Source of the DNA: a virus
Taxonomy: Duplodnaviria; Heunggongvirae; Uroviricota; Caudoviricetes
Virus record (IMG/VR): IMGVR_UViG_2571042372_000008
Direction: 5' to 3' (one strand)
DNA: 15,717 nt
The notes beneath the pieces were generated by a model, which was not told the origin of the DNA, made no database searches, and was given only the letters and a program-made list of their open reading frames with translations. Made by a program: the position numbers and the translations under genes. Of the stretch, positions 6,761-12,491 are shown piece after piece (position 1 is the first letter of the stretch; each line of letters begins with the position of its first letter).

Positions 6761-7033
6761 TCATCTCGCCGTCAGTTGTTTTGATTTCCGGTAGCCTGCC
6801 GCGTAAAGAGCTACGTTCGGAAGACAAGTTGAACCTTCATATTTTCTGGTCAACGTTGTCAGAGTTATCACTTCTGCTCTCATTGCTGGTTTGAGCTTGC
6901 ATTGCAAGACCACTCGTGAAGGGGTTGGCCTGTGTAGCTTGTCGGAGCTGATCGCCTCCTGACTTTGCAGATTTGCGCGACGAGCTCTACGGCGAGAAGC
7001 TGCGGTGCCTTTAAATTCTGTTTTTCTGGACAT
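6761..7033 (-). CDS. N: N-type transcription antitermination protein, P22 gene-24-like rather than lambda-N-like
   Basis: 90 aa from the ATG at 7031-7033, with a GGGAGGA Shine-Dalgarno upstream. Arginine-rich motif GTAASRRRARRANL near the N-terminus. C-terminus LPNVALYAAGYRKSKQLTAR resembles P22 N (...VALYAAGHRKSKQITAR) from memory. The track ORF extends 24 codons further upstream, which I reject. Confidence 0.75.
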   Translation of the reverse strand: MSRKTEFKGTAASRRRARRANLQSQEAISSDKLHRPTPSRVVLQCKLKPAMRAEVITLTTLTRKYEGSTCLPNVALYAAGYRKSKQLTAR

Positions 7034-7131
7034 GGATTCCTCCCGAATAAACTTTGGCGATGCAATCTCGAAGCTCCTCCTGAGACGGTTGCTTCGGCAT
7101 TGCATCCCACAGCTTATGTGGTTGGGTGATC

Positions 7132-7177
7132 TGGCTTTTCAGCCACGTAGTCGAGAGTCGACGTTGTTTAAAGAGCC
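7132..7177 (-). promoter_or_regulatory. nutL: boxA plus boxB hairpin
   Basis: Minus-strand reading GCTCTTTAAACAA (boxA-like, plus 7164-7177) followed by CTGGCT-GAAA-AGCCAG (6-bp stem, GAAA loop; plus 7131-7146). Lies between the predicted pL and the N start. Confidence 0.6.
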
Positions 7178-7222
7178 TGCCAGTCTGTTCCATTTGGCTT
7201 CCAGCGTCCTGCTGACGGTTAA

Positions 7223-7270
7223 ATAGTACGATATGTACTTTACAAGATCAATACAATTTGTTGTAAGTTG
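7223..7270 (-). promoter_or_regulatory. Candidate pL promoter with overlapping OL operator dyads
   Basis: Minus-strand TTGATC (-35, plus 7246-7251), 17-nt spacer, TACTAT (-10, plus 7223-7228). Adjacent dyad TACAACAAATTGTA built from TACAA/TTGTA half-sites. Confidence 0.5.
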
Positions 7271-7440
7271 GCGTGGTTTTTTATAACGCTTTGTATTTAA
7301 TAGTGTTGTTTTTTAGCGTGGATGTATTGCCTCGGCGATGTAAGGAGAGATCAGAATTGCGTGGTTTAGTGGGTTGCATCTATTTATTTTTCAATAAATA
7401 TAATTGGTTATGTGTTTTTAGGTGGGCGAACGTGAGGCAA

Positions 7441-7466
7441 AGAAAACCCGGCGCTGAGGCCGGGTT
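7441..7466 (-). terminator. Intrinsic terminator ending the cI operon (timm-like)
   Basis: CCCGGC-GCTGAG-GCCGGG hairpin starting 3 nt after the stop of the 250-aa gene; on the minus strand it is followed by UUUUCU. Confidence 0.6.
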
Positions 7467-7469
7467 GTA

Positions 7470-8222
7470 TTATGCTGCAAGTCTCTTAACCCAAGTCTCT
7501 CTTTTGGAGAATGGTAGAACTTGGCTTGATTCATGGAAGAGTAAGGAGAGTTGTTGCATTTGATCACCAATTGCTTCGCTGTCTATAACAACAAATCTGT
7601 TGTTATACTCCTCACTTGAAGCTTTAAGATCAATTAGTTTCCCAAGCAATGAGTAAGCACTATTCCAGCTTCCTCCGTGTTTCACGCTTGATGTAAAAAC
7701 GTATTTAGGTATGTCGGTTTTTATTGTTACAGGGACGGTAATTTGATGTCCACTCAAGCCATATACGTTTTCACGAAGAGAAAGTGCGTCTCTAAGCTCT
7801 GTGTGATATAGATAATCAATAACCATACTTTCAAACTTTTCAGCTTGAACTGGCTGATACCAGTCTAACGACAAAGTTGATGCGAGTATACCAGCTCTAA
7901 TTATGTTCGATGTAATCGCACCGACATCCTTTTCTGTTGCCCAAGCAATGATTTCTCCTCGAGCATTGAGTTCTGCGCCTTCTTTAAGCAGTAATTGTCG
8001 TATCTCATCAAGTCGTTTTTTGGTAAGCGAGATCCCTCTTGCCTCCATATTCATTAAGGCATCGCATCTGTCACTAACTAAATACCTACCATTGACTTCA
8101 CGGATAAAGGCACCGACATGCTCTCCATCATCACAGTAAGTGAATGGACTGATAATTCTCAAGGTCTTGCCTATTGGATGGCATTCGAAACCTAGTTGTG
8201 AGATCACTGTTGAGCACATCAT
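7470..8222 (-). CDS. Hypothetical protein (250 aa), distal gene of a two-gene cassette in the rexAB-equivalent slot; function unknown
   Basis: ATG-initiated ORF co-oriented with cI. Its ATG overlaps the stop of the upstream 185-aa ORF (ATGA, 8219-8222) and it is followed directly by a terminator. No transmembrane segment or motif I can name. Confidence 0.6.
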   Translation of the reverse strand: MMCSTVISQLGFECHPIGKTLRIISPFTYCDDGEHVGAFIREVNGRYLVSDRCDALMNMEARGISLTKKRLDEIRQLLLKEGAELNARGEIIAWATEKDVGAITSNIIRAGILASTLSLDWYQPVQAEKFESMVIDYLYHTELRDALSLRENVYGLSGHQITVPVTIKTDIPKYVFTSSVKHGGSWNSAYSLLGKLIDLKASSEEYNNRFVVIDSEAIGDQMQQLSLLFHESSQVLPFSKRETWVKRLAA

Positions 8223-8776
8223 ATTCCAAACCCCATTTGCCCCGACTCATCTTCAAGCGGTAAAGGTATTCTCCCAGAGTAAGTTATGTTCAGATGTTTA
8301 CAGAAGTAATTCCAATACCCTACCAGGCCATCTGGGTTTATGTCATCTTCGATTGGAAACGCTATTCTATCACTATAGTATCCAGCTTCTTCATAGTATA
8401 CATGGTAGTGAGCACCGTAAATGATATCTTGGTACTTCGGATGATCGACCTTGTAACTATTCGTGTGTTTGTCAAAGTGATAGGTATCTACCGCGAAAAC
8501 CCTCTTGTTATGATAGAAAGCAATAATATTTATTTTAGGGTAAGAAATCGGGTCATCAGGTTCTGAATCCTGATCTGGTTTCCATTTCAGTTCAAACTTT
8601 AGCCCTTGTATAGGTATACAATCCTCATCCAAGGGGATGATATGGGCTTGTAGCCACATATCAGAGCGACTTGGTTTCTGTTTCCATTTAACGCCAGAAA
8701 AGTTAACTATTTTTTTACAATAAAGTACTTTATCAACTTCTACTTGGCTTGGCTGATAATCATCTATTTTTGCCAA
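8219..8776 (-). CDS. Hypothetical protein (185 aa from a TTG start; 146 aa if the first ATG is used), proximal gene of the two-gene cassette; function unknown
   Basis: ORF begins 39 nt downstream of the cI stop. The only in-frame start before Met40 is a TTG at 8774-8776, preceded by purine-rich AGGGCGG. Tyrosine- and acid-rich (HYHVYYEEAGYY), no hydrophobic segment. Confidence 0.5.
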   Translation of the reverse strand: MAKIDDYQPSQVEVDKVLYCKKIVNFSGVKWKQKPSRSDMWLQAHIIPLDEDCIPIQGLKFELKWKPDQDSEPDDPISYPKINIIAFYHNKRVFAVDTYHFDKHTNSYKVDHPKYQDIIYGAHYHVYYEEAGYYSDRIAFPIEDDINPDGLVGYWNYFCKHLNITYSGRIPLPLEDESGQMGFGI

Positions 8777-8815
8777 TGTTTACCGCCCTGTAAATTGTAG
8801 ATAAAAGTGGTTTCA

Positions 8816-9469
8816 TCACCCAAACGTCTCTTCAGGCCATTGGCTGGCGATAACTTTCCCCACAACGGAACAACTCTCATTGCATGGGATCATTGGGTAT
8901 TGTGGGTTTAGTGGCTGTAGAAACACCTGACCGCTATCCCTGATCAGTTTCTTGAAGGTAAATTCATCACCACCAAGTCTGGCTATGCAGAAATCGCCGG
9001 GCTCAACAGCTTGCTCAGGGTCAACCAGAATTAACATCCCGTCAGGAAAGCTGGGTTTGGAACCTGTTGGTGCGGTCATTGAGTTACCTTCAACCTCAAG
9101 CCAGAATGCAGAGTCACTGGCTTTTTTGGTTGTGCTTACCAATCTCTCCGCATCGCCTTTGGTAAAGGTTCTGAGTTCTGGAGAGAACATCCCAGCCTGA
9201 ACATGAGAAAAAACAGGGTACTCATATTGTTTTTTAACTGGGGCCGATGAGTATTCGCCAACAGGTGAAAATGTCCCGTCGTGGTTGAATGATATGTTAT
9301 CAATACCAAGGTATTTAAACACCACACCAATATCACTAAGAGATGGATGACGAGATCCGCGCAACCAGTGTCCAATCCCACCCTGCGTCATACCTAGCTC
9401 TTCGGCTAACTTCTCTTGAGTTATGCCGAGCTCTTTCATTCTGGATCTAGCCAGTTCATACCATTTCAT
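8816..9469 (-). CDS. cI: CI-type prophage repressor: lambda-identical C-terminal S24 autoprotease/dimerisation domain on a non-lambda N-terminal HTH domain
   Basis: From [20 protein letters not shown]... to ...QWPEETFG the sequence matches lambda cI from memory (one W-to-L change). The N-terminal ~95 aa ([35 protein letters not shown]...) differ. Start placed at the ATG at 9467-9469, 7 nt after an AAGGA Shine-Dalgarno; the track begins 16 codons upstream. Confidence 0.85.
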
Positions 9470-9587
9470 TTTCATGTCCTTATTATTACGCTCTGTACTG
9501 GAACCATCCATGCACAATGTGTATTTTTACTTGTATTCGCAAAGTACATATTGTATTTTTTTTATTCGTGTTTACTATGGAGGGCAT
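9470..9587. promoter_or_regulatory. OR region: divergent pRM/pR promoters and operators
   Basis: Intergenic region between divergent cI and cro. Candidate pR: TTGTAT (9531-9536), 17-nt spacer, TATTTT (9554-9559), then GGAGGG Shine-Dalgarno before the cro ATG. Dyads from TACA/TGTA half-sites. The 11-mer AAAGTACATAT (9541-9551) also occurs in the pL spacer. Confidence 0.5.
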
Positions 9588-9803
9588 ATGAGCAACCTAC
9601 GAAAATATCGAGAGTCACTGAATATCTCTCAAACAACACTTGCTAAGGCAGTTGGATGCACACAGGGAGCTATCGGACATTGGGAATCTGGTCGTCGCTT
9701 CCCAGACCTTAAAACATGCCGTGCTCTTGTTGCGTGCCTAAACAAGTTAGGCGCAAAAGTCAGTCTTGATGACGTGTTCCCGCCGGAACACAAAGCCGCT
9801 TAA
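9588..9803 (+). CDS. cro: Cro-like HTH repressor (71 aa)
   Basis: ATG at 9588 preceded by GGAGGG. HTH segment ISQTTLAKAVGCTQGAIGHWESG parallels the repressor's [23 protein letters not shown]. Position is immediately rightward of OR. Confidence 0.8.
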   Translation: MSNLRKYRESLNISQTTLAKAVGCTQGAIGHWESGRRFPDLKTCRALVACLNKLGAKVSLDDVFPPEHKAA

Positions 9804-9823
9804 TAAGCGGATCCGCTCTTTGT

Positions 9824-9869
9824 AACAACGGACATTCGTCCTACGTCGCTGAAAAGCGAGTTCCAAGAT
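9824..9869 (+). promoter_or_regulatory. nutR: boxA plus boxB hairpin
   Basis: CGCTCTTTGTAACAA (boxA-like, 9824-9838) followed by TCGCT-GAAA-AGCGA (9856-9869), the same GAAA loop as nutL. Lies between cro and cII. Confidence 0.6.
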
Positions 9870-9944
9870 ATCTGACCAACTAAGGCCATATGCGTTTCCA
9901 CGCATACCTTTCAACTAACTATTCACTATTGGAAATCTTAAGAA

Positions 9945-10241
9945 ATGGAAAGAACAAGTTACAGCAAACTATCACAGCGTGACGTTGATCGCGCAGAAAC
10001 AGATTTACTTATCAATCTGTCAGCTATTACCCAGCGCGGTCTGGCAAAGATGATTGGCTGTCATGAATCGAAGATAAGCAGAACGGACTGGAGATTTATT
10101 GCTTCGGTCTTGTGTGCTTTCGGAATGGCATCAGACATCAGTCCGATTAGCAGGGCTTTTAAGTATGCGCTTGATGGACTCACCAATAAAAAACGCCCGG
10201 CGGCAACCGAGCGTTCTGAACAAATCCAGATGGAATTCTGA
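9945..10241 (+). CDS. cII: CII-like transcriptional activator, chimeric (C-terminal 20 aa identical to lambda CII)
   Basis: 98-aa ORF at the cII position ending LTNKKRPAATERSEQIQMEF, which is the lambda CII C-terminus from memory. The N-terminal ~78 aa differ from lambda. Confidence 0.7.
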   Translation: MERTSYSKLSQRDVDRAETDLLINLSAITQRGLAKMIGCHESKISRTDWRFIASVLCAFGMASDISPISRAFKYALDGLTNKKRPAATERSEQIQMEF

Positions 10242-10273: not shown

Positions 10274-10720
10274 ATGACAAATACAGCAAAAATACTCAAC
10301 TTCTGCAGAGGTAACTTTGCCAAACAGGAGCGTAATGTGGCAGATCTCGATGATGGTTACGCCAGACTATCAAATATGCTGCTTGAGGCTTATTCAGGCG
10401 CAGATCTGACCAAGCGACAGTTTAAAGTGCTGCTTGCCATTCTGCGTAAAACCTATGGATGGAATAAACCAATGGACAGAATCACCGATTCTCAACTTAG
10501 CGAGATTACAAAGTTACCCGTCAAACGGTGCAATGAAGCCAAGTTAGAACTCGTCAGAATGAATATTATCAAGCAGCAAGGCGGCATGTTTGGACCAAAT
10601 AAAAACATCTCAGAATGGTGTATCCCTCAAAACGAGGGAAAATCCCCTAAAACGAGGGATAAAACATCCCTCAAATTGGGGGATTGCTATCCCTCAAAAC
10701 AGGGGGACACAAAAGACTGA
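10274..10720 (+). pseudogene. O: Replication initiator O, truncated after codon 148 by IS insertion; stop codon supplied by the IS terminus
   Basis: MTNTAKILNFCRGNFAKQERNVADLDDGYARLSNMLLEAY... matches the lambda O N-terminal domain from memory. The reading frame runs into TGA at 10718-10720, the first three bases of the IS left inverted repeat. Confidence 0.85.
10623..10707 (+). repeat. ori-lambda iterons (four O-binding repeats)
   Basis: Four direct repeats: TCCCTCAAAACGAGGGA (10623-10639), TCCCCTAAAACGAGGGA (10643-10659), TCCCTCAAATTGGGGGA (10667-10683), TCCCTCAAAACAGGGGGA (10690-10707). The AT-rich ori segment that follows in lambda is replaced by the IS. Confidence 0.8.
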
Positions 10721-10771
10721 ACCGCCCCGGGAATCCTGGAGACTAAACTTCCTGAGAAAGAGGTAAACAGG

Positions 10772-11098
10772 ATGACTAAAAATACTCGTTTTTCCCCCGA
10801 AGTCCGTCAACGGGCAGTCCGTATGGTTCTGGAAAGTCAGAGCGAATATGACTCACAATGGGCGACAATTTGTTCCATTGCTCCAAAGATTGGCTGTACG
10901 CCGGAGACTCTGCGTGTCTGGGTTCGCCAGCATGAGCGGGATACCGGGGGCGGTGATGGAGGGCTCACCACCGCTGAACGTCAGCGTCTGAAAGAGCTGG
11001 AACGTGAAAATCGTGAACTGCGCCGCAGTAACGATATCCTTCGCCAGGCTTCCGCTTATTTTGCGAAGGCGGAGTTCGACCGCCTCTGGAAAAAATGA
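10772..11098 (+). CDS. IS3-family transposase OrfA (HTH/leucine-zipper part)
   Basis: 108 aa, [57 protein letters not shown]..., matches IS629 OrfA from memory. Confidence 0.9.
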
Positions 11099-11985
11099 TG
11101 CCACTGCTGGATAAGCTGCGTGAGCAGTACGGGGTCGGACCGCTATGCAGCGAACTGCATATTGCCCCGTCAACGTATTACCACTGTCAGCAACAGCGAC
11201 ATCATCCGGATAAACGCAGTGCCCGTGCGCAGCGCGATGACTGGCTGAAGAAAGAGATACAGCGCGTATACGATGAAAATCACAAGGTATACGGTGTGCG
11301 TAAAGTCTGGCGTCAGTTGTTACGGGAAGGTATCAGAGTGGCCAGATGCACTGTGGCACGTCTCATGGCGGTTATGGGACTTGCCGGTGTTCTCCGGGGT
11401 AAAAAGGTCCGTACGACCATCAGCCGGAAAGCCGTTGCCGCAGGCGACCGCGTAAACCGTCAGTTCGTGGCAGAACGACCTGACCAGCTGTGGGTGGCTG
11501 ATTTTACTTACGTCAGCACATGGCGGGGCTTCGTCTATGTGGCGTTCATCATTGATGTGTTTGCCGGATACATCGTGGGGTGGCGGGTCTCATCGTCCAT
11601 GGAAACGACATTCGTGCTGGATGCACTGGAGCAGGCGTTATGGGCCCGTCGACCGTCCGGCACGGTCCATCACAGTGATAAAGGTTCTCAGTATGTATCG
11701 CTGGCCTACACACAGCGGCTTAAGGAAGCCGGATTACTGGCATCAACAGGAAGTACAGGCGACTCGTATGACAACGCGATGGCGGAGAGCATCAATGGTC
11801 TTTACAAAGCGGAGGTAATACACCGTAAGAGCTGGAAAAACCGTGCAGAAGTGGAACTGGCCACACTCACGTGGGTGGACTGGTATAACAATCGACGATT
11901 GCTGGAAAGGCTGGGCCATACTCCTCCGGCAGAAGCAGAAAAAGCTTATTATGCTTCCATCGGAAACGATGATCTGGCAGCCTGA
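11095..11985 (+). CDS. IS3-family transposase OrfB (DDE catalytic domain)
   Basis: 296 aa in the -1 frame relative to OrfA, overlapping at ATGA (11095-11098). Integrase-core-like region (WVADFTYV...HHSDKGSQY...DNAMAES). Confidence 0.9.
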
Positions 11986-12107
11986 GTTCACAGATAAAAC
12001 ACTCTCCAGGAAACCCGGGGCGGTTCAGAGATAACAATCAACTAATACTGTTTTGTTGATTTTTGCTTGTAATTGGCGTTCTGGTCTGATTTTTGTGGAG
12101 TAAGTTG

Positions 12108-12491
12108 ATGCGTGATATTCAGATGGTTCTTGAGCGTTGGGGTGCGTGGGCGGCTAATAATCATGAAGATGTGACCTGGTCGTCCATTGCCGCCGGTTTT
12201 AAGGGATTAATTCCTTCAAAAGTAAAATCTCGCCCGCAATGTTGTGACGATGACGCGATGATCATTTGCGGGTGCATGGCCCGTCTGAAAAAGAACAACA
12301 GCGATTTACACGATTTATTAGTAGATTATTATGTATGTGGTATGACATTCATGTCACTGGCAAGTAAGCATTGCTGCTCGGATGGTTATATCGGGAAAAG
12401 GTTACAGAAGGCTGAGGGCATAATTGAAGGGATGTTAATGGCATTAGATATCCGGTTAGATATGGATATCGTTGCTAATAATTCTAATTGA
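12108..12491 (+). CDS. Q: Late-gene antiterminator Q (phage 82 / DLP12 QuuD type)
   Basis: 127 aa from the ATG at 12108, preceded by GGAG; the track ORF begins at an upstream [37 protein letters not shown]... matches DLP12 QuuD / Q82-family from memory. Cys-rich segment [12 protein letters not shown]. Confidence 0.8.

Follow-up and report, generated by a model that had tools for sequence, protein, structure and literature searches.

The closest described relatives of the repressor treated here are already in the literature. Smith et al. 2012 (PMC3430580) named its type cI2c, found together with cro4, and recognized in it the C-terminus of lambda cI behind a different N-terminus; the same paper noted a premature stop in the cI gene of VT2-Sakai. 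Among the CI proteins of Stx phages, Fagerlund et al. 2022 (PMC8951638) described a Clade I with 61% overall identity to lambda CI; this clade is probably the same type as cI2c. For the DNA sites, Sedhom & Solomon 2023 measured lambda CI alone on the VT2-Sakai operators, with apparent Kd values of 3.7–6.4 µM; lambda CI binds its own OL1 and OR1 at 0.21 and 0.35 µM. The weak binding of lambda CI to the VT2-Sakai operators is consistent with heteroimmunity. These micromolar values for lambda CI are the sole EMSA data that we found on operators of this type, and in the searchable literature no experiment with the repressor itself, whether on binding, immunity or cleavage, came to light. [quoted passage not shown] 2019, PMC6649833).

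Here we consider a cI gene in 15,717 nucleotides of DNA from a virus of the Caudoviricetes (IMG/VR record IMGVR_UViG_2571042372_000008); by the window we mean this whole stretch. The mosaic relation of the gene to lambda cI, the type of its repressor and its operator sites are all known already in the literature and databases. What can be said of this copy concerns how it is built, where it sits and how it is likely to work.

The repressor gene and its joint with lambda cI

The gene and its two parts are as follows:

8816..9469, minus strand: cI repressor gene, 217 aa, 654 nt, from the ORF list, with HTH_3 and Peptidase_S24 domains
9227..9469, minus strand: N-terminal HTH_3 DNA-binding domain and proximal linker, residues 1–81, delimited by alignment at the junction and without DNA homology to lambda
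8816..9226, minus strand: linker-distal and C-terminal S24 part of cI, for autocleavage and oligomerisation; the lambda-homologous patch in blastn

Pfam places HTH_3 at residues 9–56 (E 1.9e-10) and Peptidase_S24 at residues 85–207 (E 1.1e-28), which is the order, N-terminal HTH and then Peptidase_S24, of an S24 phage repressor, and the same 654-nt gene carries the cI annotation in phage records. The start codon at 9469 is an ATG with an AAGGA motif 7 nt before it, and it is this motif that supports 9469 as the start; an alternative in-frame ATG lies two codons upstream, at 9475. The RefSeq start, 9511, falls inside OR2 and upstream of OR3 and is probably over-extended. The catalytic features are all intact: the cleavage site Ala92-Gly93 and the dyad Ser130/Lys173 align with Ala111-Gly112, Ser149 and Lys192 of lambda cI (mature numbering), and cI thus has the Ala-Gly site and Ser/Lys dyad of the LexA/cI-type S24 repressors.

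An earlier note on this DNA had taken the last ~135 residues of cI as matching lambda cI almost exactly, and they do: residues 82–217 are identical to lambda cI 102–237 at 135 of 136 positions, the sole change being a lambda Trp to Leu110. This C-terminal stretch of 136 residues, which takes in part of the linker, the cleavage site and the S24 domain, is the closest likeness between the two proteins, and the top PDB matches of cI are lambda cI structures (3bdn, E 2.8e-96; 8gmu, E 3.1e-89). In blastn against lambda, homology within cI is confined to 8815–9226, equivalent to lambda 37226–37637, at 93.4% nucleotide identity with 27 mismatches and no gaps. All but one of the 27 differences are synonymous (dS 0.37, dN 0.003, dN/dS 0.008), so the shared C-terminal domain is old and strongly constrained; a recent transfer from lambda itself, in other words a laboratory lambda loan, is ruled out by a synonymous divergence of ~0.37. 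Relative to lambda, the domain has been under very strong purifying selection; other members of the family tolerate 15–40% amino acid divergence.

Both edges of the lambda-homologous patch are sharp. In a base-by-base alignment, DNA identity to lambda collapses over a few bases just before the TAT codon of Tyr82, and this joint, at 9226/9227, lies in the inter-domain linker 10 residues before Ala92-Gly93, where the earlier note had expected a recombination junction. Lambda DNA homology is absent in blastn across 9227–10178. At its other end, the patch stops at 8815, exactly at the cI stop codon. Judged by sequence, the relation of cI to lambda cI is that of a mosaic, its recombination joint lying in the linker.

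Could the whole gene instead have diverged vertically with lambda cI, without recombination, its C-terminal domain evolving far more slowly than the rest? C-terminal domains are generally better conserved in this family (the epsilon34 repressor, for example, is 52% identical in the N-terminal and 80% in the C-terminal domain), and the extremely low dN/dS of 0.008 would suit such a history. A difference in rate, however, would give no edge at synonymous sites of the kind seen here, where in a few bases a DNA identity of 93% drops below detection, and the second joint, exactly at the stop codon with another two-gene cassette in the place of rexAB, speaks against it as well. So do the incongruent relationships of the two domains. 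Leaving aside P0161, a database cluster of the same cI type (N-terminal domain 77/81, C-terminal domain 97%), C-terminal domains attached to the same class of N-terminal domain are 62–85% identical to that of cI, the nearest distinct relatives of that class reaching ~80–85%, whereas the nearest C-terminal domain sits in a different class, that of lambda, at 99%. We regard purely vertical divergence as extremely improbable and keep to recombination in the linker.

How general is such recombination? With the C-terminal domain alone as query, 293 proteins were found at E<=1e-40, and the best full-length matches were divided at the linker and their N- and C-terminal parts compared separately. A lambda-like C-terminal domain (60–99% identity) is joined to at least four classes of N-terminal domain:

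Class 1: lambda-type, with a KKKPLT arm
Class 2: MKWYEL...T(Q/K)G..(G/S)HW, including this cI, the epsilon34-type repressors and others
Class 3: MHEIIGERIK...GNYELG
Class 4: MDKYE(K/R)RRL, without an HTH_3 match

Identity to the C-terminal domain of cI runs from 97% down to 62% within its own class and from 99% down to 60% within the lambda-type class, and each 'shell' of C-terminal identity is common to several classes. The incongruence of N- and C-terminal parts and the sharp DNA boundary argue that recombination at the linker recurs, and because the lambda-like C-terminal domain family carries at least four classes of N-terminal domain, this recombination is routine. Across the Enterobacterales, the at least four classes found with a lambda-like S24 domain are unrelated or distantly related to one another. 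A further observation is that similarity of the C-terminal domain tracks the host gene pool and not the class of the N-terminal domain.

The data polarise neither partner in the exchange, as to direction or age: on sequence grounds, lambda cI could equally be the recombinant, and the incongruence leaves lambda cI and cI2c equally placed as the derived combination. The earlier note had spoken of a lambda C-terminal domain fused to a different DNA-binding domain, which assumes a direction for which the data offer no grounds; the relatives of the N-terminal domain, epsilon34-type and others, natively carry lambda-like C-terminal domains (80–85% identical), and lambda-type N-terminal domains occur with equally diverged C-terminal domains.

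The N-terminal domain, its partner Cro and their immunity type

To call the N-terminal domain unrelated to lambda cI, as had been done in the earlier note, was too strong. The two domains are identical at 15 of 50 positions (30%; E 8e-8) and both match Pfam HTH_3, and the alignment marks the domain as a diverged homologue of lambda's. It is 20 residues shorter than the lambda domain and is without the lambda N-terminal arm. Immunity of the lambda type combines a lambda-type N-terminal domain with lambda operators; here the domain is 30% identical over 50 aa and the operator consensus is another one. The closest relatives of the domain are the N-terminal domains of other repressors, at 49–56% in tblastn against phages: epsilon34 and its relatives at 50–52%, ST64T C2 at 56% and repressors of Klebsiella, Proteus and Vibrio phages at 49–52%. 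Exhaustive HMMER and tblastn against phages were needed to find them. The HMMER search with the N-terminal domain returned 775 cluster representatives at E<=1e-3, many of them repressor-sized (210–235 aa); a word-indexed protein search with the same query returned nothing beyond fragments of the same protein.

With epsilon34 and ST64T, the likeness runs along the whole repressor (N-terminal domain 52–56%, C-terminal domain 80%) and extends to a homologous Cro (43–69%), and the epsilon34 record annotates ATACA-N3-TGTAT sites that resemble the operators here. The first position of the recognition helix, however, is Lys/Arg in epsilon34 and Gln here; going by the protein sequences, the specificity of these repressors is probably different from that of cI or only partly overlapping with it.

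Divergent from cI lies the gene of its partner:

9588..9803, plus strand: cro, 71 aa, HTH_3-type, from the ORF list (Pfam HTH_3 E 4.2e-12), with a GGAGG Shine-Dalgarno motif 5 nt upstream

Cro of lambda belongs to a fold family of its own; Cro here is an HTH_3 protein. Cro and the adjacent N-terminal domain of cI are identical at 22 of 62 positions (35%; BLASTP E 9e-13), and at 16 of 30 within the segment that the earlier note had quoted in finding the two HTHs similar. Their recognition helices, QGGIGHW in cI and QGAIGHW in Cro, are equal at 6 of 7 positions. That note's idea of kinship between the neighbours stands in so far as they share 35% over 62 aa, but the nearest relatives of the N-terminal domain are other repressors (49–56%) and not Cro.

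Is this kinship recent? Hall et al. 2019 (PMC6649833) give 434 Cro as the accepted precedent for a Cro displaced by a duplicated DNA-binding domain of the adjacent cI. A similar displacement here would account for the 35% identity and the shared recognition helix, and for the fact that Cro matches cI-type structures and HTH_3; against PDB and Pfam, no structure or family of a Cro lineage was matched. The nearest solved structure is 28tn, an 82-aa 'lambda repressor-like protein' (E 4.5e-17), followed at a distance by P22 C2 (E 0.009) and the 434 repressor (E 0.25–0.3). On the other hand, the N-terminal domain is nearer to other repressors than to its own Cro, and Cro has orthologues of its own, ~70 aa in length, in ST64T (69%), mEp213 (54%), epsilon34 (43%) and among Vibrio phage regulators (32%). 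In ST64T, epsilon34 and the Vibrio phages, these orthologues adjoin homologues of the cI N-terminal domain, so any duplication from cI to cro predates the radiation, and the repressor N-terminal domain and Cro form an old co-inherited module. Whereas a 434-type Cro groups with the N-terminal domain of its own cI, Cro here is 69% identical to ST64T Cro and 35% identical to its own N-terminal domain. The first position of the recognition helix co-varies within a phage (Gln/Gln here, Lys/Arg in epsilon34), as expected for co-evolution on shared operators, and such co-variation is equally compatible with co-evolution and with recent common descent. A recent displacement seems to us unlikely, and we favour an old, co-inherited pair. 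The likeness to 434 is otherwise one of design: an arm-less, five-helix-type HTH repressor beside a Cro that resembles the cI N-terminal domain and has nearly the same recognition helix (PMC6649833). It differs in that there is no close sequence kinship (the 434 repressor is not among the PDB matches for cI at E<=1), that the identity of N-terminal domain and Cro is lower here (35%) and that the C-terminal domain here is lambda-type.

Sequence identity places this repressor in the VT2-Sakai/Nil2 ('cI2c/cro4') immunity type, which is already catalogued and common. The cI gene is 98.6–100% identical at the nucleotide level in Nil2, VT2-Sakai and the Morioka Stx1 and Stx2-II phages, as well as in 2851, 1717, YYZ-2008, the PA-series Stx2 phages, ev017, ev207 and the PhiR recombinants, and it is 100% identical in the isolated phages ev017, ev207 and PhiR57_1. 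The N-terminal domain is 100% identical in amino acids to that of VT2-Sakai-type phages (the VT2-Sakai stop codon aside), as is Cro; in blastn against VT2-Sakai, nucleotide identity is 96% for OR, 98.6% for cro, 95% for N and 90% for OL. N-terminal domain, Cro and operators are therefore those of the type, with OL2 and OL3 one base off each. The module of N-terminal domain, OR and cro occurs in 776 of 5,426 complete E. coli genomes (~14%), including CFT073. A suggestion of novelty in the earlier note consequently falls: the N-terminal domain, OR and cro are (near-)identical to those of a long-sequenced type (VT2-Sakai, Nil2, Stx1 phage, Stx2-II, 2851, 1717), and the pairing of a lambda C-terminus with a different N-terminus was already in Smith et al. 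2012 (PMC3430580). In VT2-Sakai itself, the premature stop falls within the recognition helix (GMT*GGIG), and the annotated cI is N-terminally truncated.

Operators and candidate promoters

Operators were sought by comparing all 15-mers of OR pairwise with OL; a generic repeat finder applied to OR and OL and a strict palindrome scan did not reveal them. Six sites are predicted:

9543..9557: OR1, AGTACATATTGTATT; core as in the published VT2-Sakai OR1; overlaps the -10 of candidate PR
9511..9525: OR2, TGCACAATGTGTATT; core as in the published VT2-Sakai OR2
9485..9499: OR3, ATTACGCTCTGTACT; core as in the published VT2-Sakai OR3 17-mer
7225..7239: OL1, AGTACGATATGTACT; core as in the published VT2-Sakai OL1
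7250..7264: OL2, AATACAATTTGTTGT; one base off the published VT2-Sakai OL2
7283..7297: OL3, ATAACGCTTTGTATT; one base off the published VT2-Sakai OL3

These 15-bp pseudo-palindromes have the consensus AGTACA-N3-TGTACT, with half-sites A(G/A)TACA. In the whole window, matches to the consensus with <=2 mismatches all lie inside the two control regions; with <=3 mismatches, 16 matches stand against an expectation of 5.5, and 0 of 200 shuffles reach 16. Each site has its counterpart among the six VT2-Sakai 17-mers in Table S1 of Sedhom & Solomon 2023, and in four cases the core is identical. The layout is that of a lambdoid immunity region, with divergent cI and cro flanking three operators and three related ones upstream of N, and lambda has the same arrangement of cI, tripartite OR, cro and tripartite OL. 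The sites themselves differ, 17-mers in lambda and 15-bp AGTACA-N3-TGTACT sites here, and they are differently spaced. The immunity specificity unlike lambda's that the earlier note had deduced is borne out by these operators, and its further proposal of shared sites fits too, in that the two proteins, repressor and Cro, are nearly alike in the recognition helix and face the same tripartite OR; in essence, the mechanism put forward there is right.

From centre to centre, OR1 and OR2 are 32 bp apart, OR2 and OR3 26 bp, OL1 and OL2 25 bp and OL2 and OL3 33 bp, whereas the corresponding distances in lambda are 24, 23, 24 and 20 bp. Given this difference in spacing, lambda-like pairwise cooperativity would be an assumption for cI, made by analogy. 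Three candidate promoters accompany the operators:

-35 at 9526–9531 and -10 (TATTGT) at 9549–9554, plus strand: candidate PR, by consensus match, its -10 under OR1
-10 at 9487–9482 and -35 at 9510–9505, minus strand: candidate PRM, by consensus match, its -35 abutting OR2
-10 at 7228–7223 and -35 at 7251–7246, minus strand: candidate PL, by consensus match, under OL1 and OL2

Because all three match the consensus weakly (8/12), we infer this layout with some reserve. The candidate PRM would start at ~9475, the first base of the upstream in-frame ATG, which points to a cI mRNA without a leader, as in lambda. The centre of OR2 would then lie at ~-43 relative to the PRM start, against -42 in lambda, and in both phages OR2 is ~42–43 bp from the cI start.

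The prophage and the proposed working of its repressor

On the chromosome of E. coli FDAARGOS_1301 there is a segment 100% identical to the window, and extraintestinal strains of O18 and O2 have segments that are nearly so. Its genes run int-xis ... exo-bet-gam-kil-cIII ... sieB, N, a two-gene cassette, cI, cro, cII and a truncated O; Q, a porin gene, lysis genes and iss come directly after an IS3-family element. Three features of this context bear on the immunity region:

6761..7033, minus strand: N antiterminator, first gene of the PL operon, under the control of OL (Pfam N_peptide E 9.7e-33; 95% nucleotide identity to VT2-Sakai N)
7470–8776, minus strand: two-gene cassette, encoding 185 aa (weak DUF6978) and 250 aa (DUF1828)
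10274–12108 region: O replication gene, truncated by the IS3-family element; O ends at 10717, and the transposase, with a programmed frameshift, occupies 10772–11985

With Q directly behind the IS3-family element, the prophage has no P, ren or nin region and is thus defective. In the annotation, N is no more than a 'hypothetical protein'; it is VT2-Sakai-type N, not lambda N, and its nut specificity therefore presumably travels with the immunity region. An arginine-rich motif, AASRRRARRA, is near its N-terminus and follows Met25 of a long ORF (6761–7193). A mis-split of N in RefSeq was suspected and, on translation, set aside: the annotated 90-aa ORF from 7033 looks like the correct N.

The rexAB genes of lambda are absent here. 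Their slot, between the cI stop and a lambda-homologous stretch at 7345–7466, is filled by the two-gene cassette, whose genes are unrelated to rexA-rexB; lambda homology resumes at 7466–7345, which is the end of rexB. The cassette matches the PADLOC candidate defence system PDC-M24 (A, E 1.2e-3; B, E 4.7e-10) as well as PHROGs of unknown function, and it may be a prophage exclusion or defence cassette co-transcribed with cI. On the other side of the control region, cII (9945–10241, plus strand) is itself a mosaic: its 5' part is 90% identical to VT2-Sakai cII, and its 3' end, from 10179 and on into O to 10717, is 98% lambda-homologous. The copy here thus differs in context from VT2-Sakai/Nil2-type phages. 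It sits in a defective non-Stx prophage of extraintestinal E. coli, has a lambda-like red/gam/kil/cIII left arm and another two-gene cassette downstream of cI in the rexAB slot, and its OL is only 90% identical.

We are confident that cI is the functional lysogeny repressor of this defective lambdoid prophage, with VT2-Sakai/Nil2 ('cI2c/cro4') immunity. By homology with the lambda switch, dimers of cI would bind the six operators, three in OR and three in OL, through the arm-less HTH_3 domain, and binding would shut the candidate promoters PR (cro-cII-O) and PL (N). OR1/OR2 and OL1/OL2 would be occupied by cI dimers, and repressor bound at OR2 may activate PRM. The C-terminal domain should provide dimerisation as well as dimer-dimer and higher-order cooperativity, and its 135/136 identity to lambda suggests RecA*-stimulated self-cleavage at Ala92-Gly93 by Ser130/Lys173; with a C-terminal domain so nearly that of lambda, the prophage should, like lambda, be inducible by the SOS response. 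Cro, with nearly the same recognition helix, would compete for the operators of cI.

Might cI instead be a decaying relic of a dead prophage, no longer a repressor at all? Part of O, together with P and the nin region, has been lost to the IS3-family insertion and deletion, and the VT2-Sakai copy of the same gene has a premature stop (also noted in PMC3430580), so decay is not foreign to this prophage or to this gene. The cI reading frame here is intact, however, with cleavage site and catalytic dyad preserved, and so are OR, cro and the operators. The gene is moreover 100% nucleotide-identical to the cI of isolated phages, which, with a dN/dS of 0.008 for the C-terminal domain against lambda, is evidence that cI is selected and used. 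We consider a relic very improbable and retain the functional repressor, with the proviso that in a defective prophage its role may have shrunk to immunity, with no viable phage left under its control.

What does this copy mean for the family? Within one host gene pool, near-identical C-terminal domains are common to heteroimmune repressors with N-terminal domains of the lambda type, the VT2-Sakai type and at least two more classes. We can imagine, although we think it rather doubtful, that shared C-terminal domains let co-resident heteroimmune repressors mix, and that differently spaced operators alter cooperativity and switch logic relative to lambda. If this were true, mixed dimers or oligomers might couple or destabilise co-resident lysogenies and select for repeated linker exchange, and the same cooperativity domain, set on an OR spaced 32/26 bp instead of the 24/23 bp of lambda, might change the pairwise pattern. 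As a natural domain swap, cI is clean, with one lambda C-terminal domain serving two DNA specificities, and may be of use for teaching or engineering; as a case of phage mosaicism, it is clean but ordinary. For the bacterium, an intact cI in a defective prophage of extraintestinal E. coli would be expected to make its host immune to Stx phages of the VT2-Sakai, 2851 and 1717 type.
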